Virus record (IMG/VR): IMGVR_UViG_3300033121_000823
Span: 19,348 to 83,347 of that record
Reading direction: 5' to 3' (one strand)
Length of the DNA: 64,000 nt
Source: a virus
Taxonomy: Duplodnaviria > Heunggongvirae > Uroviricota > Caudoviricetes
In this document: positions 22,908 to 62,905 of the stretch, one piece after another
How positions within the stretch are numbered: position 1 is the first letter of the stretch
Layout: each line of letters opens with the position of its first letter
Notes under the pieces: generated by a model
The model's input: only the letters and a program-made list of their open reading frames with translations
Told to the model about the DNA's origin: nothing
Databases searched by the model: none
Program-made: the position numbers and the translations under genes

Positions 22908-22921
22908 TGAAATAGCACTGG

Positions 22922-29924: not shown

Positions 29925-30228
29925 AAACTAGCTCAGGGTCAACTATTGGAACCTCTTCACCATTTTCATCTTGATTAATATACTTCTTCTGTTCTTCTAT
30001 TAGGCTATATACGTCTAGCAATACATCTGAAAGAGTTTTCACAACTACAACTTTTAATGCTTTTAATTGTTTCGTATCTACTTTATCAGCGGCGGCCGTA
30101 TATACATCAGTAAGTAGTGACGTATTCATAATACGTCTTAGGGCATTACCAAACTTATCTATATCGGTAAACTCTACATCTATCATTATATTGTCTATAT
30201 CTTCAAAGTCAAATGTAATTTTATTCAT
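29893..30228 (-). CDS. hypothetical acidic protein
   Basis: 111 aa ORF. Confidence 0.35.
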   Translation of the reverse strand: MNKITFDFEDIDNIMIDVEFTDIDKFGNALRRIMNTSLLTDVYTAAADKVDTKQLKALKVVVVKTLSDVLLDVYSLIEEQKKYINQDENGEEVPIVDPELVFATGGKTDGT

Positions 30229-30766
30229 TGGCTTCCTTTATCTTATCCAGGCTCTTATTAATTATAACTGAAACCCTGTTTTTTGAAATGTTATATTTCG
30301 TAGCAATTTCAGACATAGTAGCATTATCGAAAAAATACATACGAATCATTTCTTGGTCTCTATCAGATAGAGACGAATTATTAAGTAAATAGTCAATATA
30401 TTCTCTATCTATAATAGATTTCACATCACTACTTTTCGCTTCTAAAAAGTTATATAAGTTTGTATTTTCACTTAATTCAAAGTCAAGACTCTTTATTAAA
30501 CAATCTTTATACTTAACGTATTCAGACTTTATGTTTTTTACAGCAAATTTATAGTTTAGATTTCTATAAGCATCTCTATCTGCCGATTTTTCTGGGTCAT
30601 ATCTTTTATCGGCCATCATTCCATAATATGCAACGTATGCAATAGCATCACTATCCTTACTTCTTATATTACAATATTTCCTTAAAAAATTTCTAGCATC
30701 TCTTAAATACTGCTTTAGTGGAAGGTACTGACTACACATCTTAATATACTTGCACTCCTGTCCCAT
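30221..30766 (-). CDS. second sigma-70 family-like protein
   Basis: Region 4 HTH LSDRDQEMIRMYFFDNATMSEIATKYNISKNRVSVIINKSLDKIKE; weaker region 2. Confidence 0.45.
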   Translation of the reverse strand: MGQECKYIKMCSQYLPLKQYLRDARNFLRKYCNIRSKDSDAIAYVAYYGMMADKRYDPEKSADRDAYRNLNYKFAVKNIKSEYVKYKDCLIKSLDFELSENTNLYNFLEAKSSDVKSIIDREYIDYLLNNSSLSDRDQEMIRMYFFDNATMSEIATKYNISKNRVSVIINKSLDKIKEANE

Positions 30767-31761: not shown

Positions 31762-32273
31762 TTAGTAAAATCTGTAAGTGTAACATTTAACACATTAATT
31801 CCGTAATCTTGTAATTCTTTTCTAAGAAGGTCAGTTAATACTTCATCAAAGTCCTCGTGAGATTCCTTAATATCTGTGTAAGTCATACTAGACATCGCAT
31901 TTTTAATTGCGGCGAGTGCAAAATCTTTTACAGTATCATCATACTCAAATGATTCGGTGAGAAGTTTTACTACATCAGAAACTTCATAAACTACTATACC
32001 ACTTACACCTACAGCAATATCATCCTTAGTAGTAACGTACTGTGCAACCAAGTTTACTGTTTGGCGTTTTACTGGCACTACTTCTACCTCAGTAACTATA
32101 GGCCAGTAAAAGTGTACGCCAGTCTTAAAAATACCATTTTCGGCCGACATTAGTTGCGGATATCTACCACTCCTAAAGCGAACACCAGAATGAGTACTCC
32201 TAACAATCTTAATATGAGGTATAAAAGAAAGTATTGCATCGAAAAATTGTCCTATCCAGTTTAATGCTTCCAT
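31725..32273 (-). CDS. hypothetical protein (possible SPFH-like)
   Basis: 182 aa; weak band-7-like beta-rich pattern. Confidence 0.25.
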   Translation of the reverse strand: MEALNWIGQFFDAILSFIPHIKIVRSTHSGVRFRSGRYPQLMSAENGIFKTGVHFYWPIVTEVEVVPVKRQTVNLVAQYVTTKDDIAVGVSGIVVYEVSDVVKLLTESFEYDDTVKDFALAAIKNAMSSMTYTDIKESHEDFDEVLTDLLRKELQDYGINVLNVTLTDFTKCRVYALWGAGG

Positions 32274-32763: not shown

Positions 32764-33573
32764 TCATTGTACATAGTAATGTCCATTATAAAGTGCTATT
32801 AGAGAAGGATTTACGATGATTTTATATCCCATAAAACGTATCTGATTACATACGGAAATATGTTCACAATCTTCATTAGAATATTTAATGAAATTCTTTG
32901 TAAATAGCAATCCTCTGTATATTGACATGCCTCCAAAGGCAGCTTTTACTTCATAATGAGGCTGCCCACGCTTTAAGTCTAGAAGATTATAGTTATCTCC
33001 TTTTTCTTCTAAAGGACGGTATGTCCAACTATCATAGTATACCTTTGATTTTGAACCATCATCAAGTTTGGAATATAGTAGACCGTTAGCAGTTACAGCC
33101 CCAAAATCCTTATAAATATGAAGTAATCCAAATGAGTGGAATAACCCTTCATACGAAAAGCCGCCCTTAATGTCGAAGTCATAGACTATTGTATAGTCAT
33201 ATGGAATATCTGGAACGTACTTATTACGCATGTCTGCCATAGCAGTTCTACGTAACAAACCTTTACCGGTCATTTTTGGCGTTCCGATATTATACGACTG
33301 ACCAAGTTGGTTATTTAAGATATATTCCCGCGTTCCATCAAAAGAATCGTTCTCAACAATATCAAAAGTAATATCTATGTTTAGTGCTTTAAACCTTTCA
33401 ACATTGTCATGTAATTCTTTTATACAATCTCTTGCTAGTCCACATACTAAGATTTTTGGTCTAGTGGTATATAAATATGTATACCCGGCATTTAAAATAG
33501 CTGAATATTCTAATATATTTTGTGGAGGAAACATAGATTCTGGAAACTGTATTCCAAAATAATTAATCTGCAT
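32764..33573 (-). CDS. hypothetical protein, possible nucleotide-sugar transferase
   Basis: 269 aa; weak GT-A-like features. Confidence 0.2.
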   Translation of the reverse strand: MQINYFGIQFPESMFPPQNILEYSAILNAGYTYLYTTRPKILVCGLARDCIKELHDNVERFKALNIDITFDIVENDSFDGTREYILNNQLGQSYNIGTPKMTGKGLLRRTAMADMRNKYVPDIPYDYTIVYDFDIKGGFSYEGLFHSFGLLHIYKDFGAVTANGLLYSKLDDGSKSKVYYDSWTYRPLEEKGDNYNLLDLKRGQPHYEVKAAFGGMSIYRGLLFTKNFIKYSNEDCEHISVCNQIRFMGYKIIVNPSLIALYNGHYYVQ

Positions 33574-34120
33574 ATATTTTATCCATATTGAAGAATCTCC
33601 AGCCTCTATCGTTTATTGTGCCATCATCAATATTATCTAAATATTCTAACATTTCGTTAAATGTTGAAAAAAATCTTTCGTGTGGTAAAATTCCATATAG
33701 CCAAGGTGGAATATTATCCTTACCCTGCTTACATACAATAAGACATGGCTTTTTCTGTTGACTAGCAACAATTAATTCATGATATGTCCCGCACATATGA
33801 CATTCTTTATTAACGAGTACTATTAGAAAATGTGCCGCGTCAACCATTGCAAGGTCGGCCCTAACAATTTCTTTCATAGTTTCATGAAGTTTATCATACT
33901 GTTTTTTCTCTATTAACTCTTTTCTAAATAATACAAATTTTTCATCTTCATTTAGAGCTGGATTATTAATGGTACTCTTATCTAGTGGATTTAAAATGCC
34001 GACTCCATATGTTCTTAAATATGAATCTACTAATATTCTCCAACTCTTTCCTCTGTCCTTACAATCATCAATTGGTCCTGCAAGATATGCTATTTGCCCT
34101 TTGAGTTTTCCCATATCCAC
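33563..34120 (-). CDS. nucleoside 2-deoxyribosyltransferase-like protein
   Basis: GQIAYLAGPIDDC core typical of PF05014. Confidence 0.5.
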   Translation of the reverse strand: MDMGKLKGQIAYLAGPIDDCKDRGKSWRILVDSYLRTYGVGILNPLDKSTINNPALNEDEKFVLFRKELIEKKQYDKLHETMKEIVRADLAMVDAAHFLIVLVNKECHMCGTYHELIVASQQKKPCLIVCKQGKDNIPPWLYGILPHERFFSTFNEMLEYLDNIDDGTINDRGWRFFNMDKIYAD

Positions 34121-38517: not shown

Positions 38518-38826
38518 TCATACATTTTCTAGCTCATTCGAAATCATTTGCTGTTTGATAGAATTATAGATACAGAGGGCTGGCCAAATCATATTTAATT
38601 TAATTATCTTTAAATCTGTATCTGATATATCAAGATTTTCTCTCATATCTCTTTCTATAGCATTTATAGTATCTTTAAGAGTATTGAAGAGTTCTAAATT
38701 CTCATCTTTGAATTCATCAACTAATTTAATAAATAGCTTATATGGAAACTGTGTATCCTCTAATTTCATCTCTTTTACCGACTGCTCATAAAAACTCTCA
38801 AGTAGTTCTTTTTTAACTTTTATCAT
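38518..38826 (-). CDS. hypothetical protein
   Basis: 102 aa ORF. Confidence 0.4.
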   Translation of the reverse strand: MIKVKKELLESFYEQSVKEMKLEDTQFPYKLFIKLVDEFKDENLELFNTLKDTINAIERDMRENLDISDTDLKIIKLNMIWPALCIYNSIKQQMISNELENV

Positions 38827-39320
38827 AAATAGAAGCTCCTTACTGTTATACCCTTACGAACCCAGCAGTCATTGATTAGTTCTTTAATGAAATCCCAATT
38901 ACCACCTGCTAATGCAGAACCAAAACGTGGACAGACAATCTCATACGTTGCACGACTATCATTCGCCATATCTGTAGATATACTTACAGCTACGCTCTCC
39001 ATACATCGTACAAGATGATTATAGAATAACGGTCTACCTCCACCAAGTGTTTGGGCACACATGTTAGCTACTACTACCATTCTATACGAATGATTCGTAT
39101 CCATATGATTTGAGCATGGAATTAGTTGGGTTTTTCCTAACATCTGAAGATACGTCTCTTCATGATATCGTTTTTTAGCTTCTGGATATAAACGTCCTAA
39201 AGGGACGACGAAACCAGCTCCCCAAGCATTTTTATTATTCACTATATGTGGAATATATAAGACTTTTCCAAGACTGTTTCCAACGTATTCAAATAAATCA
39301 CCTTGTGTTTCTGTAAACAT
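38823..39320 (-). CDS. macro-domain-like protein
   Basis: TQGDLFE ... HIVNNKNAWGAGFVVPLG ... VCPRFGSALAGGNW resemble the MacroD motifs VQGDIT, VNAAN..LGGGGV, FPAISTGVYG. Confidence 0.45.
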   Translation of the reverse strand: MFTETQGDLFEYVGNSLGKVLYIPHIVNNKNAWGAGFVVPLGRLYPEAKKRYHEETYLQMLGKTQLIPCSNHMDTNHSYRMVVVANMCAQTLGGGRPLFYNHLVRCMESVAVSISTDMANDSRATYEIVCPRFGSALAGGNWDFIKELINDCWVRKGITVRSFYL

Positions 39321-39951: not shown

Positions 39952-40269
39952 TCATAGTTTCACCTTCTTCAAAATAATGTCGTCGGCGTCACCAAAATTC
40001 TTATTTGGGCCAGCAGAGATAGCAGTAATCGTTGTGTCAGTACTGGTTAGCTTTACTAAGGTTCCATACGAGTCGATTTCTAAAATCGAATCTTTTAATG
40101 CATTTCTAAGAATTACTTTGGTCGCCTCAACTTTTTCCACATCAACTACCTTAATCTTTTCATTAGCTGCCTTTCTAGCAGCCATAACGGCTGGAAATAG
40201 TTGGGCACAAAGTATTCCAACTATTGCTATAAGCACTAATAATTCAACTAAAGTGAATCCACGCTTCAT
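39952..40269 (-). CDS. prepilin-type (type IV pilin/pseudopilin-like) protein
   Basis: MKRGFTLVELLVLIAIVGILCAQLFPAVMAARKAA is a class III signal with N-methylation motif; resembles Planctomycete DUF1559 N-termini. Confidence 0.6.
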   Translation of the reverse strand: MKRGFTLVELLVLIAIVGILCAQLFPAVMAARKAANEKIKVVDVEKVEATKVILRNALKDSILEIDSYGTLVKLTSTDTTITAISAGPNKNFGDADDIILKKVKL

Positions 40270-40874
40270 TGGTTATATTCCTTACTAATAATTTTGTAGA
40301 TTACTCGTTCACCCTTTGGGCTTTTACGTTCATAGAGTGGCCGTACAACTACCCCTTCCATCACATTTGTCGCATTTTGTACACGGCTCTTTCCGGCCGC
40401 TAACAAAGTTAATTCTTGGAACGAGTGTGGAAACTTTCCTATGAATGGAGGACGTAATACATTATACGTATTGAACATCTTTTCCCTCTCATCAATATCT
40501 AGGAATCTTTCTTCATTACGGTCATATATGTCGAAAGCATAGAAAGCTCGCTTACCACCTTCAAGACCATACTTAAATCCCTTAACATTTCCAGTTGCTT
40601 CGCCATACAGCACGAAGTGAGTATTCTCGCGGAGAAAATTCTTACATGCTTCACTTAAAGTGTGGAAGCATGTCCAATGCTCACTTTTAAAAGATTCTTC
40701 TACCCAGTGATTTCTAGTTCCTACTTTAAATGTAGTATTTTTACTATCATAGTAAACTCTACAATTAGAGTTATGTACAATAATTCCATTTGCTATAAAA
40801 TTATTGTTATATTTTACTTCAATATCACAAGCTAAATATACTTCTTTTAAATAGTCTTTTTTATGTAATCTCAT
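40266..40874 (-). CDS. C-intein (35 aa) fused to C-terminal half of Rnl2/Rnl5-type RNA ligase
   Basis: MRLHKKDYLKEVYLACDIEVKYNNNFIANGIIVHN|S resembles split DnaE IntC (…VYDIGVERDHNFALKNGFIASN). Downstream EGVVVRP and KIISKEY resemble ligase motifs IV and V. Confidence 0.6.
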   Translation of the reverse strand: MRLHKKDYLKEVYLACDIEVKYNNNFIANGIIVHNSNCRVYYDSKNTTFKVGTRNHWVEESFKSEHWTCFHTLSEACKNFLRENTHFVLYGEATGNVKGFKYGLEGGKRAFYAFDIYDRNEERFLDIDEREKMFNTYNVLRPPFIGKFPHSFQELTLLAAGKSRVQNATNVMEGVVVRPLYERKSPKGERVIYKIISKEYNQ

Positions 40875-41601
40875 ATTTTTCTCTATTAGTTTTTAAACAA
40901 CTATCTGTAAATTTCACATCTTTGATATTAGATAAATCTAAATTATTTGACAATTTACTAATCCAAAATTTAAACTCTGACTCCTGCATATTCCCTTTCA
41001 TATAATTAATTCTTTTATGTACAATGACTATATTACTTTTAATATAGCCAATTTCTGGATTAATCCTATCAATTGATGCAGTCTGTTTTGTTACTTTATT
41101 ACTATCTGGATAGAAATTAATATTTATTCCAGAATAATAACATTTAAAATTTTGTTTTTCAAATTGACTCCAAATATCTTCCATAGATATATCTATAAAT
41201 ATAAGTCTTTCTTCGCAAGATTGTAATATTCTTCTATAATATGAATATGATATGTCTTTATATCCATTTTTCCTACATTTAGATATCTTATCACATCCAC
41301 AACTTTTTGTTAAGTTTCTTTTTAATGAACTTATATTTATAATTTTTTTATTTCCACAATCACACGTACATAAAAATTTAGCCTTATTATGTCTATCTAA
41401 TCCATGATATGACTCTACAATTAGTTTATTAAACTTTTTACCTATAACAGACATATCTACACCAGAATCCTTTTTTCTTCTTATACCATATTTTTTCATT
41501 TTTTTATATATAGTATGAGTAGTTGTGTTTAATATTCTAGCAGTGGCAGTTATATTGTTATAACTTAATAATTCTTGTAATTTTTCTTTTGTTATATGCA
41601 T
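40861..41601 (-). CDS. Mob-like HNH homing endonuclease between intein halves
   Basis: N-terminal HTH, CTCDCG...CGC zinc finger, ASIDRINPEIGYIKSNIVIVHKRINYMKGN variant HNH motif; paralogs at 50483..51094 and 61077..61787. Confidence 0.55.
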   Translation of the reverse strand: MHITKEKLQELLSYNNITATARILNTTTHTIYKKMKKYGIRRKKDSGVDMSVIGKKFNKLIVESYHGLDRHNKAKFLCTCDCGNKKIINISSLKRNLTKSCGCDKISKCRKNGYKDISYSYYRRILQSCEERLIFIDISMEDIWSQFEKQNFKCYYSGININFYPDSNKVTKQTASIDRINPEIGYIKSNIVIVHKRINYMKGNMQESEFKFWISKLSNNLDLSNIKDVKFTDSCLKTNREKYEIT

Positions 41602-41643
41602 AATTTGGTCTCCTTACCAAAATATACATAGTAAAGAAAAGAA

Positions 41644-42429
41644 TCACAAGTGTACTACATCATCTTTTTCTGTTAATTCTCCAGCGGAGACATAACCTCT
41701 ATTTTTTGTAAGAATAGGATGGTCAACTGTACATATCAGTTCTTTACCATTATCAAAATGTAATTTTAACCAAGACTTTTCTAACCTTTCAAACTTTGTT
41801 GCTAATACTACATCTTTAGTGTATGTATCATTTTCTATATCATAACTTATAATATTTTGCCCGGATTTAATATCCTTAATTTTAATATCTCCATCTGGAG
41901 TTGATACTAATGTATCCTCATGAACGCAGCCATGAATCTTCTCTTCAACCCACACTAACTCATTATCTTCAAAGTACTTATGGAGTTTTACGCCACTATC
42001 AATATCATACTTTGATAGTGATTCTCCGCTCGTAAAATTACCGCCGCTTGAAAGGTGTAGTTCTGGCTCCCAGTGTTTTACGCCAAGAACTTGGGATAAA
42101 TCGTCGCCCTCCTTAACTGTAAGTCCATCCGGAACTTTTACTAGGCAGCCGTCACTTAAATAACCGCGTAGTTTAACAGCCTTAACGCGTACTTCTTGCA
42201 CGCCGTCATTCTTGTTTAAGAATGTAAATGGTTCCTTCCAACAATCTACGACCGATTGTGGTTGAATCCAAACGGCTAACTCGCCATCCTGCCAACTATC
42301 CGTATTTACGACTACTTGAACAGTCCCCTCAAATAGACGAACTATAGATAACTTTTCGGCGTCTGGATGTTTTTCCTTCTTGACGACTACGACTGGCGCC
42401 TGATGTGTAAACTTTGTCATTCTTTCCAT
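41644..42429 (-). CDS. N-terminal half of Rnl2/Rnl5-type RNA ligase fused to N-intein (about 94 aa)
   Basis: About 165-aa N-extein ends in nucleotidyltransferase motif I EEKIHG. Intein block A CVHEDTLVSTPDG and block B TVDHPIL follow; the ORF ends in TGA without a C-terminal splicing block. Confidence 0.6.
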   Translation of the reverse strand: MERMTKFTHQAPVVVVKKEKHPDAEKLSIVRLFEGTVQVVVNTDSWQDGELAVWIQPQSVVDCWKEPFTFLNKNDGVQEVRVKAVKLRGYLSDGCLVKVPDGLTVKEGDDLSQVLGVKHWEPELHLSSGGNFTSGESLSKYDIDSGVKLHKYFEDNELVWVEEKIHGCVHEDTLVSTPDGDIKIKDIKSGQNIISYDIENDTYTKDVVLATKFERLEKSWLKLHFDNGKELICTVDHPILTKNRGYVSAGELTEKDDVVHL

Positions 42430-42967: not shown

Positions 42968-44032
42968 TCATAATACTGTTGTTTTATCCTTATAAGTTGT
43001 TCCATAACTCTTCCACTTGATTGGTGATGAAATTAATGACTCTGAAAAACCTTTCGGCTTCTTATCGCACCAAGTTAAGAATATTCCGTCAGGTTTAACA
43101 ATTCTTTCAGCATTTTGAAAGATTCTTAAATTGTCACCAAATGTTCCATACTTGATTGGACCTTGATTTTTGTTGAATTTATTATGGTCGTCACCTAAAT
43201 TAATTCCAATTTCGGATTCGTTGAACGGTCCATCACCATGCCTTGAAAAGAATGTACGAATTACTCCAACAATTTCGGCGGTAATCCCTCTTAGTTTACA
43301 AAAATCTAGTGCATATCGAGGAGTTACACTGCTCCAAGTAGTGTACGGAATCATTCCATAAACTTCATCTAATCCAAAACCTTGAGTTCCCTCAAAAATA
43401 TAACACTTAAAGTGTTCTTCATATGGAGCTTCAAACATTTCAAGCGTTTCACCACACCATGACCACGGATTAAAGCTTATTAGCTTTTCAAGTATTTCAT
43501 AAGTACCAGAATAATTATAAAAAGAATCTATATATCTCTCTTTCATGAGATAAAGCTTATCTAGCTTATCCTGTACAGAGTCTCCATAAAAGATTGCGTC
43601 ATTGCCATACTTTAGGAAATATTCCTTAGTCTTTCCAACTCCAACTCCACAACTTAAATATCCATCATGGAAATCCATATATTTTTGGAGTGGAGTAGTT
43701 ACTAAACATTTAGGATGTATCCTCATTACATCTCTAAAATTTACAAAATTCTTCAACGCTTCATATTCACGACGCATTGCCAATGGTTCTACAATAGAAT
43801 TCCTATCATGCAATGTTTTCACCCCATGAAATGTTCCACTTCCAAATTGTGAGAAGATATGACTATGACCACTTGGTAAAACTACTCTATGTCCAGCCTG
43901 ATGGCCACCACAAAATCTGACATTTACTACGTCAGATGGAAAGTGCGTCTTAACGGCGTTAGCCGTAAAATAATCTACTGCTGTACCCTTTCCCTCATCA
44001 CCGAATCCCATACCAACTACAATTTTATTCAT
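42968..44032 (-). CDS. adenylosuccinate synthetase family protein (PurA-like, possibly PurZ)
   Basis: GFGDEGKGTAVDY (P-loop GDEGKGK), CGGHQAGHRVV (GGHNAGH), FEGTQGFGLD (FEGAQG); IMP-site motif GTTGRGIGP diverged to CGVGVGKT. Confidence 0.7.
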   Translation of the reverse strand: MNKIVVGMGFGDEGKGTAVDYFTANAVKTHFPSDVVNVRFCGGHQAGHRVVLPSGHSHIFSQFGSGTFHGVKTLHDRNSIVEPLAMRREYEALKNFVNFRDVMRIHPKCLVTTPLQKYMDFHDGYLSCGVGVGKTKEYFLKYGNDAIFYGDSVQDKLDKLYLMKERYIDSFYNYSGTYEILEKLISFNPWSWCGETLEMFEAPYEEHFKCYIFEGTQGFGLDEVYGMIPYTTWSSVTPRYALDFCKLRGITAEIVGVIRTFFSRHGDGPFNESEIGINLGDDHNKFNKNQGPIKYGTFGDNLRIFQNAERIVKPDGIFLTWCDKKPKGFSESLISSPIKWKSYGTTYKDKTTVL

Positions 44033-46710: not shown

Positions 46711-46781
46711 GCGTAGCGAGTAGTCCCGCAGGGAATCGAACCCTAGAAGCCGACTTTATAAGAATCAGCCGTACAACCAGT
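46711..46781 (-). tRNA. tRNA, anticodon probably UAU (Ile-AUA type)
   Basis: Acceptor GGTCCTG/CGGGACT with GU pairs, anticodon stem TGATT/AGTCG with loop CTTATAA, T-arm TAGGG-TTCGATT-CCCTG. Confidence 0.4.
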
Positions 46782-46815
46782 AGCCAGGACCATACTGCCT
46801 TTCGGCAGTTTTAAT

Positions 46816-47277: not shown

Positions 47278-48105
47278 CTACTTATCCTTTAAAGGAAGTT
47301 GAATAAATGGAGTTCCATTTGAGCCGCTAACCATAGGCAACTTACCATCCCACTTTTCCATAGCCTTGTAACTTAGAAGTTCCGGCGAAAGACTCTTAGT
47401 AATAGTTTCATTAGCTTGAGCTTCTGCTCGTGCTTTTTCCAAAATTGATTCTGCTTCACCTTTTGCCTTAGCAATTGCTTGTGCTGCTTCAGCTTCAATC
47501 TGCTTAACTTTATTCGCTGCTTCAATAGCTCGCTGCGAACTTTCAATAGTCGCGGAAATAGAATCCTTTACTTTTTCCGAAACTTGAATCTTTCCTACAA
47601 AGGCCAGCATATCAAATGCAAAGCCACGCGGCCCCAATTCTTTGCGTAAATCTGCCAAAACTTCATTAAGTAGAAGTTCACGTTTTTCACCCAACATCTC
47701 TACAGCTTTGTACTTGCCGGCGTGGCGAGTAATAGCGTCACGAACCTTTGAACGCATATAGTAATGTGTAATGTACTTTGCATCTTGTCGTAGTTCCTGA
47801 AAAATCGTTGGAATGAACTTTTCTTCAATACTATAGGATAGTGCCACATCAGCTTTTAGGACTTCACCCTCTGACGAGTTAAATGAAATCGCTTCATCAA
47901 TTGGACTCCCCTCATTAATATCTTCAGTCCAAACTACATTTTGGGTAAATGTAGGGAATTCGTAAATACGAGTTGTCCACTTATTGTAAGGAATACGACC
48001 TCGCAATAGTTCGGACGCAGTTCCCTTATCGCCACCCCAATAATTTACTTTAACACCAACCCAACCGGGCTCAATTGTTTCACAACCAACACTCATAACC
48101 AACAT
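47278..48105 (-). CDS. SPFH/band-7 (HflC/stomatin-like) protein
   Basis: N-terminal TM, SPFH core, C-terminal coiled coil EAEAAQAIAKAKGEAESILEKARAEAQA. Confidence 0.6.
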   Translation of the reverse strand: MLVMSVGCETIEPGWVGVKVNYWGGDKGTASELLRGRIPYNKWTTRIYEFPTFTQNVVWTEDINEGSPIDEAISFNSSEGEVLKADVALSYSIEEKFIPTIFQELRQDAKYITHYYMRSKVRDAITRHAGKYKAVEMLGEKRELLLNEVLADLRKELGPRGFAFDMLAFVGKIQVSEKVKDSISATIESSQRAIEAANKVKQIEAEAAQAIAKAKGEAESILEKARAEAQANETITKSLSPELLSYKAMEKWDGKLPMVSGSNGTPFIQLPLKDK

Positions 48106-48154: not shown

Positions 48155-48340
48155 TTAATCGTTTAGATACTCCTTGAAAAACTTTGGAACGTAATGATAT
48201 AATAAGAGGAACCATACAATTAAGGTTAAAATTCCACCAGTTAGTGCAAAATCCATGGAAGCTGCCATAAAACTGGTAGATACTTCAATAATTAGTGCAG
48301 TCAATAAGACTGTGCCTACTAGGCGAATTAAATGCTTCAT
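48155..48340 (-). CDS. small membrane protein
   Basis: 61 aa with two TM helices. Confidence 0.4.
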   Translation of the reverse strand: MKHLIRLVGTVLLTALIIEVSTSFMAASMDFALTGGILTLIVWFLLLYHYVPKFFKEYLND

Positions 48341-49431
48341 AATACACGAGTTACTTTCTCGGGCGATGCCCGCATTAAGGTTATTGGATTTATGTCAGTC
48401 TCTCCATTGTCGTACTTCGTCTTAGCCTCGAATAGGAAGTTATTGAAAGGACAATCCTTTATTGCCAACGCAAACTTCTTTCGCGACTTTTCATCCTTAA
48501 AACAGAACCAATGATTAGACATTGTTTCCATTATTTTTTGAAGTTTTTCCTCTAAGGCTCGTGCCTGCTTCTCAACATATGGAAAATAACATATTACTTC
48601 ATCAAGTTCTCCATTCAATATATATTCGATTAAACGTGATTCCGACTGTATATTCCCATTGTTTGCCATCCGGTGGAGCATTAAGTAGGTGGAATTTTTC
48701 ATCTTGAACCGCAAATTATTGCGGTCGCGAAGAACAAACCCCTCAAAAGTTTTATCCGTTCGCTCTAGATTTGCTATGAACGCCTCAACATCCATGATAT
48801 CGCCGAAAGAATATTCTTCAGGCATCTCCACACCTATTTCTTTTCCTATTACTTTTGTGATTGGATGAAGTAATTCAACTTCTCCATCAAATACCGTTAA
48901 TAGGAAAAGAGATGGTGTATTGTATAGGCGAACAACTTGATTATATCGCGAACACAATTCAAAGACATATGTCTTCGTTTTTTCCAATCGTTGGAAGAAG
49001 TTTTCCGGGGCGGCTAACATAAATAGTTGTCGCCACGTTATAAAATCATTTACATTCCTGCCGCCAAAACTTCCACGCGTTTGTACGTGCCATTCTCCAT
49101 TCCAATAGTAAACTACGATATACGAGCCATCTTCCTTGAAAGTTGCTACGCTTTCCTCAAACTGAAATTTCTTCATTTCATTAGGATATTCACCCCAATT
49201 AAAGAAACGGTAAAAACCGCGAGCACATAATGACCAATCTTTGGAATCTAGAGTAAGTGCCCGACATTCACGAACTATCGGCTCAAACTTCATCTTAGAG
49301 GAAGCTATTTGGCCATAGTTGAGGATTACTCGACTATCCGTTGGATGCTTTATAGCATTTATTCCATAATAATGGTTTAAAAGAGATAAGTCTCCATTAT
49401 TCTTTATTAGAAACTTTTGAACGTCGAGCAT
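48337..49431 (-). CDS. RNA ligase 1 (Rnl1-like)
   Basis: FKEDGSYIVVYYWNGEWHVQTRGS aligns with T4 Rnl1 [24 protein letters not shown] around Lys99. Confidence 0.65.
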   Translation of the reverse strand: MLDVQKFLIKNNGDLSLLNHYYGINAIKHPTDSRVILNYGQIASSKMKFEPIVRECRALTLDSKDWSLCARGFYRFFNWGEYPNEMKKFQFEESVATFKEDGSYIVVYYWNGEWHVQTRGSFGGRNVNDFITWRQLFMLAAPENFFQRLEKTKTYVFELCSRYNQVVRLYNTPSLFLLTVFDGEVELLHPITKVIGKEIGVEMPEEYSFGDIMDVEAFIANLERTDKTFEGFVLRDRNNLRFKMKNSTYLMLHRMANNGNIQSESRLIEYILNGELDEVICYFPYVEKQARALEEKLQKIMETMSNHWFCFKDEKSRKKFALAIKDCPFNNFLFEAKTKYDNGETDINPITLMRASPEKVTRVL

Positions 49432-51110: not shown

Positions 51111-51728
51111 TTAATCTTTGACTACGATATTTCGTCTATTTATTTCATTTTTAATATCTTGTAGAGTTGTTTTGTGAGAAACGCCTAATCTTTTTTCAAG
51201 ATTGTGTATTTCTTTTATTTCTTCCATATCTTTAGTACTAGAAGCTTTATGAATTTGCGAAAATGCGTAACCTTTAAACGAGTGCCATGCTTTCTTACTT
51301 AGGAATAAGTCCCTTCTTTCCCTAACTAGATTTCCGACCTGAGTAGAATGGATAACACACTCCAATGGAGTGTATAACGAGTCAACCATGTTGGGATTGC
51401 ACTCGGAAGCTAAGGCAAAGTAGTCAACAATATTGTATATCGTGACATCATACTGCTTATCTTCATCCTGAATGTGATGAAGTTGATAGGAAGAGAAACG
51501 ATTATTCAATGTACGCCACTTTCCAAAACCGACAAGTTGTCGGTCAAGATGTGGGAATAGTTCACTTTTTGGAGGGATACAAAATCCATATATGTCGACG
51601 TCTGACCCACCATTACTTACATGGTAGGCTTGACTGCCCATAATTGTTAGGTAATGAATATTATCAACTATCCATGCTTCGCATCCCGGCAGTAACTTCT
51701 TATCATATAACCGTTTAATCAAATTCAC
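51111..51728 (-). CDS. Pol-beta-superfamily nucleotidyltransferase, unknown substrate
   Basis: GSQAYHVSNGGSDVDIYG fits the GS-x9-DxD minimal NTase motif. Confidence 0.45.
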   Translation of the reverse strand: MNLIKRLYDKKLLPGCEAWIVDNIHYLTIMGSQAYHVSNGGSDVDIYGFCIPPKSELFPHLDRQLVGFGKWRTLNNRFSSYQLHHIQDEDKQYDVTIYNIVDYFALASECNPNMVDSLYTPLECVIHSTQVGNLVRERRDLFLSKKAWHSFKGYAFSQIHKASSTKDMEEIKEIHNLEKRLGVSHKTTLQDIKNEINRRNIVVKD

Positions 51729-52585: not shown

Positions 52586-53158
52586 TCAGCAACTGCATGT
52601 GAAGAACGAGCCGCCACCGTCCTTATTCTCGTACTTTGTTCCCTTAATTCCATCTAACTCATTATAGTGAGTCCAAAATTCGTCGGGAACAGATTCACCA
52701 TCAAAGCGTGGGCCGTGATTTACGTAATCCCCATATTCAACATATCGCTTTCCATACTCGACAACCTCATCAAAATCCATTCCATAACATGCTGCCCATT
52801 TGGTAATCCAGCCAATATGGCTATCCTCATATCTTTTTTCTAGTTTTTTAGAATATGAATCATGGTCGAAAGAGTCATGTTCCCATGCATGGCGTAATGA
52901 AGAGATACTACCGGGATACAAACAAAGGAGGCACGTATCGTCATACGTTTTATCCTTCTCAAATGGATTAACTACTGCTACGTGAGGTCTAAATGAACAT
53001 GAGACATAGTATGTTCCGTCAATTTTCTTAATGCCAACATGGTCACCGGGCCATACAGGTTCACGAACCTTAGCAACAATGACCGCAATATGTAGAGCAT
53101 CTCTTACGCCAACATCCTCATCAGTCAACTTTTTCAAAAATAGATTATCCTGCGACAT
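52586..53158 (-). CDS. hypothetical protein
   Basis: 190 aa ORF. Confidence 0.4.
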   Translation of the reverse strand: MSQDNLFLKKLTDEDVGVRDALHIAVIVAKVREPVWPGDHVGIKKIDGTYYVSCSFRPHVAVVNPFEKDKTYDDTCLLCLYPGSISSLRHAWEHDSFDHDSYSKKLEKRYEDSHIGWITKWAACYGMDFDEVVEYGKRYVEYGDYVNHGPRFDGESVPDEFWTHYNELDGIKGTKYENKDGGGSFFTCSC

Positions 53159-54629
53159 TACTGCGAACCTCCTTTAAAGTATACTCTTTGAGTAATTTTC
53201 CATTAAGAAAAACTGGTTGCATAATATTCCACATCTTAAAAGATGCATTATATTCTTCCTTCGATAAATCTTCAACAAGCTCAAGTTTGGAAGTACGTTT
53301 TACTCCAAGTAAACCTCTCGCAGACTTCTTAACTCCATCATCAGTCTTTGGGTCTTTAAATACGTTGATAGACTTCCCATCTACTTCTCCATAAGTAGTC
53401 TTAACTGCAAATCCAAACGTATCTCTAGTAGTATACCTATAAGTGAATGAGCCAATTCCAAGAACAGGGATATTACTTGCGAAACCCTTACGTTTTAAGC
53501 CCTCTAAAATATCTCTTTGACGTTCCAAAGTAATTGAATCGCCATAAATAATTCCAATGTGTGGGTCAAGACTCTTGTAACCCTTACGAGTAAAGGAACC
53601 GCCGAAAATCTTATGCATCATTTCAACAGAACCATAATACTCTGGAGTTCCAAATGTAGCATCTTTATCGCCACAAATAATTTTAGTTGGATTACCGGAA
53701 TCGGGCCTGATTGTAACCTTACCACTCCTATTCATAATTTCATTCTTCAACTTTGGAAGAATTTCTGTAATGACCTTCCAATAGTCATAAGAATCACATA
53801 CAATGGAAACTATTCCATCTGGATATACTTCAGTGATTAACCGCTTAAACTGTTCGAGTTCTCCAGTCAATAAATCTTTTCCACTCGCGAGAATTGCTAT
53901 AGTTTGTGTTGAATGCTCTGTAGCAACAACAGATGTTCCAATTAGTCCTGTAGCACCATAATAGTGCTTAAGAAATTTTACGGCAGGAACTGTATCTGTA
54001 CCAGTAAATGATAATAAGTGGCCAGCTCCACTTAAACATGCACTTTCTAAGCCAGACATCCCTCTATAAGAGAAATCATGCCCTTGCCATTGCACAAAAT
54101 CTCTATCGCCAACCGTTTCATCGGCATATTCATTAAATACCCGTCTATATTCAGCAGCAATAGTGGCGGAAGTACATGGTTCCCAAAGTACATTCGACAT
54201 ACTTGTTTCTAAGAAGTTTGTTAACCAGAAAAAGTCTGGCAATGTATTATGAATAGTATACATTGGTACACGTAGAGGAACTTTAGTGCCCTCTGGTACT
54301 GCACAAATCTTAATTGGAAGATATCCTAATGTATGTAAATCACTTACATGCTTAGATGAAATGTCGCGACCAACAAAATCACGAATATTTTCTTCATGCT
54401 CTTCGAGAACAGAGCTTTTCGGTCGATTAAAAAAGTTATCATTCCACTGACGAATCAAATAATCCTTAATGTAATATTGTAATCCAAAAAATACAACCTC
54501 ATTAATATTTGGAATACGAGACCCACGCGGTGTAAAATTTGAATAAATTCGTTCAGTGTCTTGAGGATACTGATTTCTGTGGTCTAACTTATATGAATCA
54601 GTATATGTCAATGGCATCATTTCAATCAT
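53145..54629 (-). CDS. NAMPT-family enzyme (NadV or Namat)
   Basis: 494 aa; N-terminal LTYTDSYKLDHRNQYP and overall length fit the NAMPT family. Confidence 0.7.
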   Translation of the reverse strand: MIEMMPLTYTDSYKLDHRNQYPQDTERIYSNFTPRGSRIPNINEVVFFGLQYYIKDYLIRQWNDNFFNRPKSSVLEEHEENIRDFVGRDISSKHVSDLHTLGYLPIKICAVPEGTKVPLRVPMYTIHNTLPDFFWLTNFLETSMSNVLWEPCTSATIAAEYRRVFNEYADETVGDRDFVQWQGHDFSYRGMSGLESACLSGAGHLLSFTGTDTVPAVKFLKHYYGATGLIGTSVVATEHSTQTIAILASGKDLLTGELEQFKRLITEVYPDGIVSIVCDSYDYWKVITEILPKLKNEIMNRSGKVTIRPDSGNPTKIICGDKDATFGTPEYYGSVEMMHKIFGGSFTRKGYKSLDPHIGIIYGDSITLERQRDILEGLKRKGFASNIPVLGIGSFTYRYTTRDTFGFAVKTTYGEVDGKSINVFKDPKTDDGVKKSARGLLGVKRTSKLELVEDLSKEEYNASFKMWNIMQPVFLNGKLLKEYTLKEVRSNVAG

Positions 54630-54780
54630 TAGAGTACCCCTACCAAAATTTTAATTTGTTTTATTATTTTATACAGCGTATGAAATTTCTAAACATTGAC
54701 CAACTAGTATGGTATCACTTGGAGCGTCTCCAATATCATTACATAATTGTGGGGCATTGATTTTTAATGTATACACTATA

Positions 54781-55644
54781 TCAATCCTTCAAAATATCAT
54801 AGAAAAAGTTAATACCGTCCATCTGTTCATCACGGAATGAATTAGTAGTTGCTACCCAATCAATGTTGGGAATGGGGAGTAATTTGCTAAAGATTCCATG
54901 GTATACAGCAAGACCAACATGTTTGGCACCGTTTTCCTTTAAGAGTTTTGCAGTTCCGGCAAAAGTCCCACCACCATCACATAAATCGTCTAGAATTAAG
55001 CAGTTATTAGTCGGCTTTCCTTCAACAATTGTGAATCCAGTCAACTTACCATTTGGTTCTCGTACTTTTTCACACAATACTGTATCTGATGAACGTAAAA
55101 AGTTAAAACGGTCAACAGCGCCCTTATCGGGAATAACAATGGTTGGAAAATTGTCATCGCGTACATTTTTGTATTCACTGATTGAATTATAGAAAAATTC
55201 TTGCCCTTGTATTGGAAGAATAGTATTCTTTTCAGCAAACTTCTTATTTACCAACAGGTCAAAAAAGCTTTCACTGTGTGGACAATGAATCCATACATCG
55301 GAAACACTAAGATATTCCGATAAAATATCTAAGAATACCTTTTCTGTCCACGGACTTACATACTCTGTAGTTCTGTCCATTCGTTGGGCAGATAGGTACA
55401 AAATTTCCACAATTGGTTGTGTAGCACCATTCTTAGTAACTGTATCTAAGAGCATACATAGACGAACTAAGTCATCCCCCGTCTTAATACGGGCGAAAAT
55501 ATGTGGGTCACGCACAATCTTCTTAAGTGTGAAGTGCGGCATACCATCTGGCATTGTTACCCACGAAAGTTGCATACGTCCATCGTCAAAAATGTTTTTA
55601 TACACTAGATGTTTCTCCAAGTATTTTAAGTAGTCTAAGCTCAT
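54781..55644 (-). CDS. Prs-family enzyme (PRPP synthetase or ADPR-PP synthetase Adps)
   Basis: PRPP-binding loop CLILDDLCDGGGTFAGTAKLLKENGAKHV aligns with Prs [29 protein letters not shown]; divergent N-terminal half. Confidence 0.65.
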   Translation of the reverse strand: MSLDYLKYLEKHLVYKNIFDDGRMQLSWVTMPDGMPHFTLKKIVRDPHIFARIKTGDDLVRLCMLLDTVTKNGATQPIVEILYLSAQRMDRTTEYVSPWTEKVFLDILSEYLSVSDVWIHCPHSESFFDLLVNKKFAEKNTILPIQGQEFFYNSISEYKNVRDDNFPTIVIPDKGAVDRFNFLRSSDTVLCEKVREPNGKLTGFTIVEGKPTNNCLILDDLCDGGGTFAGTAKLLKENGAKHVGLAVYHGIFSKLLPIPNIDWVATTNSFRDEQMDGINFFYDILKD

Positions 55645-56278
55645 GTGTTGAATTAGTTAAATCATGTACTTCATCGAATCCATTTACATTAAATAATCCA
55701 TGAAGAAATCGTAATGGATAGTCTTGATAAGGAATGATTTCCTTTAGTTCCTTAACAGATTTATTTTGACAATAATCATGCCCATACAAGTGTTGAGCAA
55801 TTCTCTGTATAGAGTTACGATGACAATCTAAATAGCGGCTATAAAAATAGTTACAAGCCTCATGAATTGATGGAACGGAAAATACGCGGCAGTCAAAAGT
55901 GCCGTAAAAGCCCGTCTTATCATTTCTCATTTCCTCCGTAAGGAAGATAGAACATGTAGTAGCGAATAAACTGCATAGTTTGTTGATTCGGCCCGAATAG
56001 ATTAGCTGAGACTGTTCCTCTGTTGGCCGCCAACAAAAACTTATTTCATCAGATGAAGTGAAAGCATATGGAAAATTATACTCTTCACAGATATATTCCA
56101 TACACTTTTGCATTACCCAAGAGAAATTACTATCAAATGGCTGAGTTAGTTTATGCCTTTTCAGAACTTTTGAAAAGTTAACTCCATCAACTCTTACAAT
56201 AATCCACTCATTATGAGGAGCTTGTAAATCGAGTTTCTTTTCATAGTCTTTCATACGATTCGACAAATCGAGAGTCAT
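55598..56278 (-). CDS. hypothetical protein
   Basis: 226 aa ORF. Confidence 0.4.
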   Translation of the reverse strand: MTLDLSNRMKDYEKKLDLQAPHNEWIIVRVDGVNFSKVLKRHKLTQPFDSNFSWVMQKCMEYICEEYNFPYAFTSSDEISFCWRPTEEQSQLIYSGRINKLCSLFATTCSIFLTEEMRNDKTGFYGTFDCRVFSVPSIHEACNYFYSRYLDCHRNSIQRIAQHLYGHDYCQNKSVKELKEIIPYQDYPLRFLHGLFNVNGFDEVHDLTNSTHELRLLKILGETSSV

Positions 56279-57042: not shown

Positions 57043-57267
57043 TTATAAAGCATTAAGCACCTTCAATACTTCATACTTAGCACTCTCCAAGTGTTCCTCA
57101 GTCCCATAAGCAAATACATTGGCAGGACTGTTCTTACACCAAATTTCATACTGTTCATCAGTTAGAATATGCCACGAATAATTCTTTCCATTATTAAAGA
57201 CTTGTCCGACCATTCCTTTAGAACGAATAGCACATAGTTCATTGCTCAAATTAGACATGTGAAACAT
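57043..57267 (-). CDS. hypothetical protein
   Basis: 74 aa ORF. Confidence 0.35.
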   Translation of the reverse strand: MFHMSNLSNELCAIRSKGMVGQVFNNGKNYSWHILTDEQYEIWCKNSPANVFAYGTEEHLESAKYEVLKVLNAL

Positions 57268-57833
57268 TATTGTGCAGTCTCCTCATTGTGATGGTCAACA
57301 AAATTGATTGGACGGCTAGCCATAATTTCCCTAACTTCATTGAATGATAGAGGTTTTTTCCAAACGTCCCATCCAATGTCGATAGTTTTTCCGCCAATAT
57401 CCTCTAATGAACCATGTGAATGTCCATATAAGCACCATGAACCATGATGGCTTTTTTGCCATACACGCATGGCGTAATGAGACATTACAATAAATTGTTT
57501 ATTGATTCGTCGTTCTAGGAACGAATGAGTTTCCGTAAATAAGTGTCGATAATACTTTCGAATGTTATCGTCATGATTGCCATAAATAAGAATGATATTT
57601 CGGCATCGAACCATGTTTCGGAATTCTAGAACACGTTCCTTACCACCAAATGACCAATCGCCCAAATGGTACAACGTATCATTCTCATCTACATGAGAGT
57701 TGATTACATCTGCAATATGCTTCGTCATAACAAATTCATCGGCGTAGGTTCTATATCCTTTATCCCAGTCTGATACAATTGGACCTGCGATATTCTTATG
57801 AAACGCATGAGTGTCCGAAATAAAATATTCCAT
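57267..57833 (-). CDS. calcineurin-like metallophosphoesterase
   Basis: FISDTHAFH, HLGDWSF, YGNHDDN, GHSHG motifs. Confidence 0.65.
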   Translation of the reverse strand: MEYFISDTHAFHKNIAGPIVSDWDKGYRTYADEFVMTKHIADVINSHVDENDTLYHLGDWSFGGKERVLEFRNMVRCRNIILIYGNHDDNIRKYYRHLFTETHSFLERRINKQFIVMSHYAMRVWQKSHHGSWCLYGHSHGSLEDIGGKTIDIGWDVWKKPLSFNEVREIMASRPINFVDHHNEETAQ

Positions 57834-58508
57834 TTATCGTTGCTCCAACGTCGGTTTAAGCCATAAATCATCTTCAAACAAAAACCACATTCCAAATCCA
57901 TCTAGAGTCCTAAAAGAGCTAATACTATCCGCCCTGAACATCTTAAAGAGTTCTTCGCGAATTCTTTCTTTTGAAATACCAGACAAAAGACCTTTTAGGT
58001 CAGAATCATATAGAAAGGAAGAAATTTCCTTATCTAACTTAAATCCTAAGGTAATTGCGAAGCGAAATGCTCGCAAAATTCTAAGTCCATCCTCAGTAAA
58101 ACGCTTCTCTGGCGAACCAACACAACGGATAATTCGCTGAGCAATATCCTTAATTCCACCATGTGGGTCAATATACGTTCCATCGTACTTTGCGATAGCA
58201 TTCATCGTAAAGTCACGACGCTCCAAATCGTCGTAAATACTTCCAGCTTCAACCTTATCAGGATGTCTTCCATCATTATAAGCTCCATCCTTTCGACAAA
58301 GAACATAATCAGTAGTTCCAATACCTGGAATCTTAGCACGAATAGTTAGGAACTGTGGAGTTTCCAAAAAGATTGTTCCGCCAATTCTAAGAATTTCTTT
58401 CCTCATTTCATCGTATGATGATGCTTCTACAGAAAAGTCAATATCCTTACTATTCCTTCCAATAATTTCATCACGAACACAGCCACCAACCTTATAGAAC
58501 TTGACCAT
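57834..58508 (-). CDS. CCA-adding tRNA nucleotidyltransferase (minimal head domain)
   Basis: YKVGGCVRDEIIGRNSKDIDF is the class II CCA/poly(A) polymerase GGxVRD..D.D motif; likely start at MVKFYKVGG. Confidence 0.65.
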   Translation of the reverse strand: MVKFYKVGGCVRDEIIGRNSKDIDFSVEASSYDEMRKEILRIGGTIFLETPQFLTIRAKIPGIGTTDYVLCRKDGAYNDGRHPDKVEAGSIYDDLERRDFTMNAIAKYDGTYIDPHGGIKDIAQRIIRCVGSPEKRFTEDGLRILRAFRFAITLGFKLDKEISSFLYDSDLKGLLSGISKERIREELFKMFRADSISSFRTLDGFGMWFLFEDDLWLKPTLEQR

Positions 58509-58995
58509 AGAAGCCAGTCTCCGTGTCAAAAGTAATGTCCATCTTAATACCAGTTGCTCTAACGTCAAGCTTTCCACACTGCTCAATCAGATATTGAGTA
58601 TTTTGCCACCGCAAAACCATCTTATTTATGGTTCCAAATGGTACGTTATGAACGCCGCGATTAAAACATTCATCAGCATTAAATGAGAATGTTTCGTAGA
58701 AGATTACACTGGAAAAATACTTTTTAGCCAATTTAACATAATCTTTACATTCCTTCCACGTAATATTCATATTGTCGACAATTGGAATATTTCCATCAGC
58801 AAGAATCTTCTCGACTCTCTGCTTATTCAAGTTGTGAAATACTCCAAGTTTACTAGCATCAAATTGATAAGTTCCGTCCTTGATAAAGTACGAATCTGTA
58901 GAACAAATCAACGAGTTGTGATAATAGTGCATTTGGATAAAGTTAGCCAAAGTACTTTTACCACTACCCGGAAGTCCACGCATAATAATTAACAT
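58492..58995 (-). CDS. P-loop polynucleotide kinase-like protein
   Basis: Walker A GLPGSGKSTLA; 167 aa; adjacent to phosphoesterase and CCA enzyme. Confidence 0.55.
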   Translation of the reverse strand: MLIIMRGLPGSGKSTLANFIQMHYYHNSLICSTDSYFIKDGTYQFDASKLGVFHNLNKQRVEKILADGNIPIVDNMNITWKECKDYVKLAKKYFSSVIFYETFSFNADECFNRGVHNVPFGTINKMVLRWQNTQYLIEQCGKLDVRATGIKMDITFDTETGFYGQVL

Positions 58996-62789: not shown

Positions 62790-62833
62790 GTTTTTTCTCT
62801 ATTAACTTTTGATAAATCTGAATAATCGCGAAG

Positions 62834-62905
62834 TGTCTCTACTAGGACTCGAACCTAGATTTTGGGATTTAGAGTCCCTCGTATTTCCAATTATACGATA
62901 GAGAC
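62834..62905 (-). tRNA. tRNA with anticodon CUA (putative amber suppressor, or sense-UAG decoder)
   Basis: Perfect acceptor GTCTCTA/TAGAGAC, D GTAT-AATTGGAA-ATAC, anticodon stem AGGGA/TCCCA with loop CTCTAAA (C32 U33 C34 U35 A36 A37 A38), T-arm CTAGG-TTCGAGT-CCTAG. Confidence 0.5.

Follow-up and report, generated by a model that had tools for sequence, protein, structure and literature searches.

The stretch of DNA analyzed here, called the window below, covers 64,000 nucleotides of an IMG/VR virus record assigned to Caudoviricetes (IMGVR_UViG_3300033121_000823, positions 19,348 to 83,347). It is a phage-like genome segment of ~35% GC in which nearly all genes lie on the minus strand. Two neighboring genes of that strand, one for a Prs-like and the other for a NAMPT-like protein, very probably form a module of the phage NAD+ reconstitution pathway NARP1, with which an uncultivated large phage would rebuild NAD+ from the fragments left by NADase defenses. 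The locus is thus a divergent member of a known, published and structurally characterized pathway and not a new kind of system; NARP1 occurs in ~4% of sequenced phages (10.1101/2024.02.11.579819). A sequence-only reading of this DNA had placed NARP1 on a par with ordinary salvage by Prs and NadV, and sequence-level tests now tip that balance toward NARP1. The window carries both genes in the published order, with homology to both enzyme families and with the published active-site and specificity residues, and the two genes are paired in relatives as well.

In the proposed scheme, NADase defenses of the host (TIR, SIR2 and SEFIR effectors, in systems such as Thoeris, DSR and SIR2-HerA) would split NAD+ into ADP-ribose (ADPR) and nicotinamide. 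The Prs-like protein, a predicted ADPR pyrophosphokinase hereafter called Adps-like, would transfer the beta-gamma pyrophosphate of ATP to the 1'' hydroxyl of ADPR, yielding ADPR-pyrophosphate (ADPR-PP). The NAMPT-like protein, a predicted nicotinamide ADP-ribose transferase hereafter called Namat-like, would grip the adenine of ADPR-PP with a clamp and join ADPR-PP to nicotinamide, giving NAD+ in one step. We infer these activities, the substrate preferences and the anti-defense role by analogy with the NARP1 systems of SPbetaL1, FADO, Bas63 and ICP1 (10.1101/2024.02.11.579819; PMC12774641; PMC13586617). Such a pathway reverses NAD+ depletion, the common end-point of Thoeris, DSR, SIR2-HerA, SEFIR and other defenses.

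Both open reading frames (ORFs) are present on the minus strand, where the sequence-only reading had put them. The Adps-like gene extends over 54781..55644 if read from an ATG at 55644 (287 aa) or over 54781..55605 if read from a GTG at 55605 (274 aa), and is followed, after a spacer of 151 nt (54630..54780), by the co-oriented Namat-like gene (53145..54629, 494 aa). The GTG is most likely the true start because a GGAG lies 9 nt upstream of it, it overlaps the stop of the preceding Thg1-like gene by 8 nt, and relatives start there: proteins P0001 and P0002, 87-97% identical to the Adps-like protein, begin at the matching position. Promoter and terminator scans of the spacer gave no terminator-like site, and promoter-like matches did not exceed the shuffle expectation. 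The same spacer sequence is found in an independent 3.5-kb contig of run SRR32380191 (L014), which is 100% identical to the NARP1 region, while in L003, a relative with 87% identity, its place is taken by an 87-aa ORF. When the locus was compared with 50,697 phage records by megablast, no close relative emerged, only a 39-nt match.

The NAMPT homolog is supported by its sequence as an enzyme of the Namat type rather than a Nampt using phosphoribosyl pyrophosphate (PRPP). Its family assignment in the sequence-only reading is borne out by Pfam (NAPRTase, E 4e-36; NAMPT_N, E 6e-13) and by PHROG 448, 'nicotinamide phosphoribosyl transferase' (E 2e-185). When all PDB chains were compared with it, 9w5x and 9w5w came first (554 bits, E 3e-165), followed by 9ke8 (439 bits) and by rat and human NAMPT (~245 bits). 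The 9w5x/9w5w chains carry the deposited name 'Nicotinamide phosphoribosyltransferase'; they are taken to be SPbetaL1 Namat because residue numbering and motif agree with the published description (PMC12774641). In tblastn searches of the same 50,697 phage records, the Namat-like protein shares 36-54% identity with the homologs of phages that have a validated or typical NARP1 (SPbetaL1 53.7%, FADO 51.5%, Bas63, or JohannRWettstein, ~46%, ICP1 45.7%), as against at most 32% with the PRPP-type Nampt of T4-like and jumbo phages such as KVP40-like phages, Miro and phiCbK.

Crystal structures of SPbetaL1 Namat have shown that Namat and Nampt have a common catalytic core, while an adenine 'selectivity clamp' is specific to Namat (PMC12774641). 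All listed core residues with which SPbetaL1 Namat binds nicotinamide and ribose phosphate (D13, Y15, F189, R192, D215, R306 and D308) are kept here as D11, Y13, F186, R189, D212, R308 and D310, and the alignment shows an E-H-S motif with an invariant H239. Among the residues contacting NAD+ in SPbetaL1 Namat, 19 out of 20 are conserved, the remaining one being an Ala to Ser change also found in Bas63 Namat. The clamp is complete: R40, F392, Y396, T398, R399 and D400 of SPbetaL1 correspond to R38, F395, Y399, T401, R402 and D403, whereas the equivalents of F392, Y396 and T398 in KVP40-like Nampt are G, Q and D. The SCH motif of the Namat-like protein, GSFTYRYTTRD, fits the published Namat consensus GSX-phi-X-phi-X-phi-TRD (PMC12774641) and includes F395 and Y399; its second phi position is Arg (usually Gln or Asn) and its third Thr (usually Asn or Val). 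At the same position the Nampt of KVP40-like phages, Miro and phiCbK read GGGLLQ.. or GGGLATG.., and the NARP2 type reads GGGLLQQLDRD. The SCL loop, judged by a stacking Arg, Lys or Tyr at its third position, is G-S-R38, equal in length to T-S-R40 of SPbetaL1, and its third residue is Arg.

The grouping in a neighbor-joining tree points the same way. In this small sample of 11 sequences, the Namat-like protein forms a clade (bootstrap 100) with the Namat of SPbetaL1 and FADO and with two Adps-linked homologs from metagenomes; for all Namat together the bootstrap is 70. On the other hand, the NCBIfam model NF006629 (NAMPT) scores both types alike (538 bits for the window protein, 594 for SPbetaL1 Namat, 508 for KVP40-like Nampt) and is therefore unusable for telling Namat from Nampt.

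The Adps-like protein, too, is supported by its sequence as behaving like validated Adps, yet it is very divergent. That it is a Prs homolog, as first proposed, agrees with PHROG 619, 'ribose-phosphate pyrophosphokinase' (residues 24-274, E 1e-44), and with TIGR01251, colinear over residues 32-254. With Pfam, the Pribosyltran domain at the C-terminal end (residues 207-264, E 8e-7) is the sole match, and Pribosyltran_N was not detected; the earlier description of a divergent N-terminal half is therefore correct. Its best phage matches are ICP1-type Adps, with ~30% identity over 89-90% of the query. Against TIGR01251 (cut-off 113 bits) it scores 72 bits, below the cut-off like the Adps of ICP1 (98) and SPbetaL1 (106), while E. 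coli Prs reaches 423; against NF002320 (cut-off 297 bits) it obtains 67 bits versus 533 for E. coli Prs. A search of the PDB with this protein matched only Prs structures, in a copy of the database that was without the ICP1 Adps entries.

For ICP1 Adps, both activity and structures (apo, bound to ADPR and ATP, and bound to product) have been reported (PMC13586617). Its residues R87, H121, D161, K185, D212, D213 and D216 correspond to R88, H123, D173, K193, D219, D220 and D223 of the Adps-like protein and are invariant in the alignment; K185 is the catalytic Lys, which is K162 in SPbetaL1 Adps. The sequence-only reading had proposed to compare active-site residues with those of characterized enzymes; the comparison finds the Namat clamp conserved in the NAMPT homolog and the catalytic and acceptor residues of Adps conserved in the Prs homolog. 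The PP loop, which in ICP1 Adps (C215-S220, followed by F221) binds the ATP donor, reads DDLCDGGGTF here and resembles DDICDGAASF of ICP1 and DDICDGGRTF of Bas63, unlike the loop of Prs (IDTGGTL), and 43 of 54 retrieved homologs have DDLCDGG in common with it. As the central GGT is also Prs-like, the match to Adps resides in the flanking positions: C222, D223, G224 and F228 agree with ICP1 and Bas63. Downstream of the HGIFS motif, only 34 residues remain, a number within the 34-44 of validated Adps, whereas E. coli Prs has 61. This short C-terminal tail is consistent with absence of the alpha11-alpha12 filament module of Prs, the loss of which is a defining Adps signature (PMC13586617).

Compared individually with the window, validated systems show how the divergence is distributed. 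The NARP1 modules of SPbetaL1 and FADO (Osterman et al., 10.1101/2024.02.11.579819; PMC12774641) have the same order, Adps then Namat on one strand, with Namat proteins 52-54% identical to that of the window, a short Arg-bearing SCL loop and an SCH motif GSFTY(Q/R)Y(N/T)TRD. Their Adps, in contrast, are only 26-29% identical to that of the window, and their PP loop reads DDLSS(F/Y)GGTF instead of DDLCDGGGTF. In SPbetaL1 the two genes abut, whereas in the window they are separated by the 151-nt spacer and embedded in a cluster of RNA-repair genes. ICP1 Adps (PMC13586617) is the best-scoring validated Adps against the window (30-31% identity over ~89% of the query, 77 bits with phmmer); the two have the short C-terminus in common, and C215 and F221 of ICP1 are conserved as C222 and F228. 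They differ at F18/M31, F92/T93 and F223/G230, and in the loop, GAAS in ICP1 and GGGT in the window. E. coli Prs (PDB 4s2u, 7xmu), a cellular class I PRPP synthetase, displays the same two-domain phosphoribosyltransferase fold, colinear over residues 53-253, with the catalytic Lys/Arg loop and the DD motif. At 23% identity, however, the window protein falls below the TIGR01251 and NF002320 cut-offs, has CDGGGTF instead of IDTGGTL and appears to be without alpha11-alpha12.

The pairing of the two genes is kept far beyond the window. A scan of IMG/VR for the DDLCDGG loop returned 80 viral loci, and in 70 of them a NAMPT or Namat homolog lies on the same strand within 3 kb. SCH-region motifs collected from the viral loci have an aromatic residue at motif position 3 in 60/60 cases and also at position 7 in 56/60. 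In species genomes of GTDB, the same type of Adps was found at 39 bacterial loci, mostly of Bacteroidota, 36 of which have a Namat homolog within 5 kb. Remoter Adps homologs, with 36-41% identity, lie on contigs 98-183 kb long, and in all cases a NAMPT homolog is one or two genes away. As a criterion for Adps, we looked for a Namat homolog within 10 genes, which holds for 97% of Adps-clade genes; here it is the very next gene, 151 nt downstream. That such distant relatives keep the pair speaks for a pathway of two enzymes and against chance proximity. In the 87%-identical L003, the upstream order is also that of the window (kinase, CCA-adding enzyme, phosphoesterase, Thg1-like gene, Adps), and continues with the 87-aa ORF and the start of Namat.

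NARP1 would thereby be extended to an uncultivated large phage lineage, with nearest bacterial Namat-linked relatives in Bacteroidota. The closest bacterial Namat homologs (56-57% identity) belong to Flavihumibacter, Ferruginibacter and Chitinophagales, a weak hint that the host is possibly a member of Bacteroidota. The phage itself recurs in independent samples, as the NARP1 region is identical in SRR32380191 and the macro protein encoded at 38823..39320 is 100% identical to a protein on a 130,801-nt JGI contig. By sequence, the Adps of the window ranks with the most divergent of those that still have a textbook Namat as partner, and this combination makes it useful for defining which residues are truly needed for ADPR recognition. 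Since the system itself is expected and already explained, its main residual value would lie in this divergent Adps and in the candidate accessory genes of its relatives. One of the relatives, on a 183-kb contig (L004), has an R2K-type ATP-grasp gene (PF18299, 5268..6017) overlapping the start of the Adps homolog, and its 554-aa Namat has an insertion resembling that of Bas63 Namat.

The sequence-only reading had also reported a wider NAD/ADP-ribose gene set, and this set is largely real. It comprises a NADAR domain protein of the ADP-ribosyl hydrolase family (14092..14637, minus strand; Pfam E 7e-49), an IU-NH nucleoside hydrolase (604..1485, E 2e-11), two nucleoside 2-deoxyribosyltransferase-like (NDT-like) proteins, one of which is encoded on the minus strand adjoining NADAR (14637..15200, Nuc_deoxyri_tr2, E 2e-14) and the other at 33563..34120 (Nuc_deoxyrib_tr, E 2e-8), and a stand-alone macro domain protein (38823..39320, minus strand). 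The latter has no Pfam match and was recognized as a macrodomain by structure (AlphaFold2 (AF2) model with pLDDT 92.6; Foldseek E 3e-14; PDB profile E 6e-43). With the AF2 model, Foldseek retrieved 2fg1 (E 3e-14), 5e3b (E 3e-12) and Poa1p (E 5e-11), while the family profile against the PDB ranked 2afc, which is BT1257 (E 6e-43), and 5e3b, which is SCO6735 (E 1e-40), far ahead of Poa1p (E 5e-9). It is thus of the BT1257/SCO6735 type, in a class that also contains Poa1p, TARG1 and DarG.

The member of the set that did not stand is the 'NadR-like kinase' (5962..6504): it is a generic AAA_28 P-loop kinase, with 21.7 bits against TIGR01526, for which the cut-off is 341. We considered it as a component of NARP3 (PnuC plus a NadR-like NMN adenylyltransferase (NMNAT)/RNK; NMN, nicotinamide mononucleotide) and set this aside, as the protein is kinase-only (180 aa, AAA_28 E 2e-12) with that same low TIGR01526 score. 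In jumbo phages, its homologs occur as stand-alone genes labeled 'thymidylate kinase' or hypothetical, and scans of the window revealed no PnuC transporter.

The confirmed genes raise the question of whether the pair, while being NARP1, depends on helpers in trans, namely the macro protein, NADAR and the NDT-like protein of 14637..15200. This dependence is conceivable but on balance unlikely. In such a scheme, the helpers would provide Adps with free ADPR released from ADPR-1''-phosphate, from ADP-ribosylated DNA or protein, or from cyclic ADPR signals. The idea has a precedent in macro ADPR-1''-phosphate phosphatases (Adpp), which are proven partners in 15% of NARP1 phages (10.64898/2026.01.28.702374), and the macro protein of the window belongs to the class containing Poa1p; from its modeled fold, it may be considered a candidate ADPR-releasing helper in trans. 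Relatives provide further support. In loci L015 (9512..10589) and L016, an NDT-like gene, 53% identical to the one of the window, lies three genes 3' of Namat, with a macro-domain gene directly after it; in the window the NDT-like gene instead abuts NADAR (14092..14637/14637..15200). L005 and six genome loci of Bacteroidota have a NADAR homolog at a distance of ~0.5-4 kb from NARP1.

The distribution of these genes speaks against such dependence. In the window they are 14-40 kb away from the pair, and tblastn near Adps in the 80 viral loci found NADAR in none, NDT-like genes in 2 and a macro gene of the window type in 2. NADAR already has an explanation of its own, as an anti-DarT factor (PMC13464706). 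As for the macro protein, it is far nearer to BT1257/SCO6735 (E 1e-40 to 6e-43) than to Poa1p (E 5e-9), and has one loop motif in common with the Adpp-like macro protein of Bennett (Thalassavirus), a match confined to 36 residues of the C-terminal phosphate loop. It was considered as a possible Adpp orthologue.

In NARP1-AP (Adps-Adpp-Namat, as in Vibrio phage Gary; 10.64898/2026.01.28.702374), the Adps and Namat core and the presence in the genome of a macro protein of the Poa1p/TARG1/ALC1-like class are as in the window. In the window, however, 14 kb separate the macro gene from the pair, so that the locus is not a NARP1-AP operon, and the macro protein is of the BT1257/SCO6735 subgroup. Within the two genes on either side that we allowed for a macro gene around Adps or Namat, the neighbors are the Thg1-like gene, a PHROG 1843 protein, ORF190 and an 86-aa ORF, none of them a macro protein.

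Relatives nevertheless offer leads for new accessory enzymes in the NADAR, NDT-like and histidine phosphatase genes adjoining NARP1. In L005 (a contig of JGI 3300051786), a histidine phosphatase gene (6900..7589; His_Phos_1, E 3e-14) is inserted between Adps and Namat, and NADAR follows ~0.5 kb 3' of Namat; by analogy, this phosphatase could be a non-macro counterpart of the Adpp of NARP1-AP. It is a tentative and rather improbable proposal that NADAR, NDT-like proteins and the histidine phosphatase are further NARP1 accessory types, beyond the published macro (Adpp) and RyR (RyDEP) ones, and that an extended, partly scattered recycling network of macro, NADAR and NDT-like proteins, freeing ADPR from ADPR-1''-phosphate, ADP-ribosylated DNA or cyclic ADPR signals, feeds the divergent Adps in which Met replaces a stacking Phe. 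Speculatively, ADPR-type substrates may be provided or protected by the scattered macro, NADAR and NDT-like genes of the window. Our literature search found no publication linking NADAR or Thg1 to NARP1.

Less probable than a NARP1 module with helpers, and in our view improbable, is classical salvage, in which the Prs-like protein would make PRPP from ribose-5-phosphate, the NAMPT-like protein NMN from PRPP and nicotinamide, and an NMN adenylyltransferase of host or phage would complete NAD+, as in NARP2 with a supply of PRPP added. The two proteins are after all members of the Prs and NAMPT superfamilies, and some of the observations that weigh against NARP1 lean this way. Substrate preference is not certain from sequence, and Namat enzymes still produce NMN from PRPP in vitro (PMC12774641). 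The PP loop of the Adps-like protein retains the G-G-T of Prs, so that residual PRPP synthesis is possible. The Adps-like protein shares only 26-31% identity with validated Adps, compared with 23% for E. coli Prs, and in phmmer comparisons the latter (50 bits) is intermingled with validated Adps (ICP1 77, Bennett 61, Bas63 54, SPbetaL1 48, FADO 47), so that the Adps-like protein is about equidistant from both. A profile built from five Adps separates them only weakly, with 113 bits for the window protein and 97 for E. coli Prs, compared with 173-265 for validated Adps scored by leave-one-out. Also weighing against the NARP1 reading, F18 and F92, which stack on adenine in ICP1 Adps, are replaced by M31 and T93, and the trees drew on only a single bona fide Prs and on three Nampt as outgroups.

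F92 is not a family-wide feature, as its equivalent is S73 in SPbetaL1 and M102 in Bas63 Adps, while F18 is Phe in most relatives according to the consensus. The intermediate homologs P0011, P0013 and P0006 score 159-174 bits on the Adps profile, and two of them (P0011 and P0006) adjoin Namat. Against salvage, the adenine clamp, missing from PRPP-specific Nampt, is present here, and the Namat-like protein does not group with Nampt of the NARP2 type. The Prs homolog is below the curated cut-off (72 versus 113 bits), apparently without the C-terminal module of Prs, and its loop is not DTGGT. No NMNAT (CTP_transf_like) domain was found among the ~70 ORFs of the window that were scanned, though the genome continues beyond it, and published surveys show Nmnat, rather than a Prs-like gene, as the partner of PRPP-using phage Nampt (10.1101/2024.02.11.579819).

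NARP2 itself (Nampt plus Nmnat, Vibrio phage KVP40) resembles the window by its NAMPT fold, and NF006629 matches both types. It differs in that its Nampt is devoid of the aromatic clamp (GGGLLQ..RD) and at most 32% identical, and in that its partner is Nmnat instead of a Prs-like protein. The window, conversely, has a homolog of the Namat type, and its scanned ORFs, in a genome that extends further, contain no cytidylyltransferase domain either.

That the Prs-like protein would simply boost PRPP for a nucleotide-supply module, next to the NAMPT-like gene by chance, is very hard to sustain, even though the window has a PurA-like gene (42968..44032), the IU-NH hydrolase (604..1485), the two NDT-like genes, an HD hydrolase and a P-loop kinase, since the two genes stay together at 70 of the 80 viral loci and at 36 of the 39 bacterial ones, the Prs hallmarks are absent and the other nucleotide genes are 10-50 kb distant.

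Upstream of the NARP1 pair, the stop of a Thg1-like 3'-5' nucleotidyltransferase gene (55598..56278, minus strand; Pfam Thg1 E 1e-28, PHROG 4717 E 6e-45) overlaps the Adps start. We considered it as a NARP1 component and treat it instead as lineage-specific synteny, part of an RNA-repair cluster, because no Thg1 homolog was found at the 80 other viral NARP1 loci of IMG/VR; L003 has the same synteny. In phage FADO, a tRNAHis guanylyltransferase gene is five genes from its NARP1. RNA and tRNA repair genes surround the pair in the window (48337..49431, 51111..51728, 55598..56278 and 57267..58995), the set consisting of an Rnl1-like ligase, an RlaP nucleotidyltransferase, the Thg1-like protein, a metallophosphoesterase, a CCA-adding enzyme and a P-loop polynucleotide-kinase-like protein.

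On the other side, ORF190 (52586..53158, minus strand, 190 aa) overlaps the Namat stop by 14 nt, so that co-transcription is suggested by position only. It has no Pfam or NCBIfam match, and its AF2 model has a pLDDT of 56. It nonetheless belongs to a conserved phage family with members in phiM12-like, GAP32-like and other jumbo phages, with invariant motifs RDAIH, GIVDPF, ITSLRHxWxHPxF and VPDEFWTHY and a C-terminal SFFTCSC; the motifs suggest possible metal ligands. A role as NARP1 accessory was discarded, as homologs elsewhere are not linked to NARP1.

ARAGORN predicted 17 tRNA genes, all on the minus strand, in 8425..22908 and at 46720..46791 and 62833..62905. Among them, tRNA-His(GTG) (17712..17784) is relevant to the Thg1-like gene, and an odd tRNA (19455..19529) received a 4-base anticodon call (taat). 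The tRNA of 62833..62905, of the amber-suppressor type (anticodon CTA, called 'Pyl'), could point to TAG recoding in part of the genome. HNH endonuclease genes of the plus strand are interspersed among the tRNAs (18798..19382 and 22922..23539).

An Rnl2-type RNA ligase gene (40266..42429, minus strand) is apparently interrupted by an intein: its part 41644..42429 combines an OB-fold with Hint/intein N-terminal splicing matches, 40861..41601 has a helix-turn-helix and may be the endonuclease part, and 40266..40874 shows an intein C-terminal match, then the RNA_ligase domain. The PurA-like adenylosuccinate synthetase gene already mentioned is on the minus strand (354 aa; Pfam E 1e-28; PHROG 1211, '2-aminooxy adenylosuccinate synthetase', E 8e-44). 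Its best phage matches are PurA-like genes of cluster C mycobacteriophages (~33% identity), and an identity as PurZ of a 2-aminoadenine (Z) genome was considered. Finally, cargo unusual for a phage is encoded at 6507..7181 (plus strand), 7171..8385 (minus strand), 24956..25555, 27281..28147, 28825..29283, 30221..30766, 31725..32273 and 47278..48105, and includes a plus-strand PAS-domain protein, a DUF1501 protein (E 3e-72), a cytochrome-c-like protein, a matrixin-type metalloprotease, two sigma-70-like proteins and two SPFH/Band 7 proteins.

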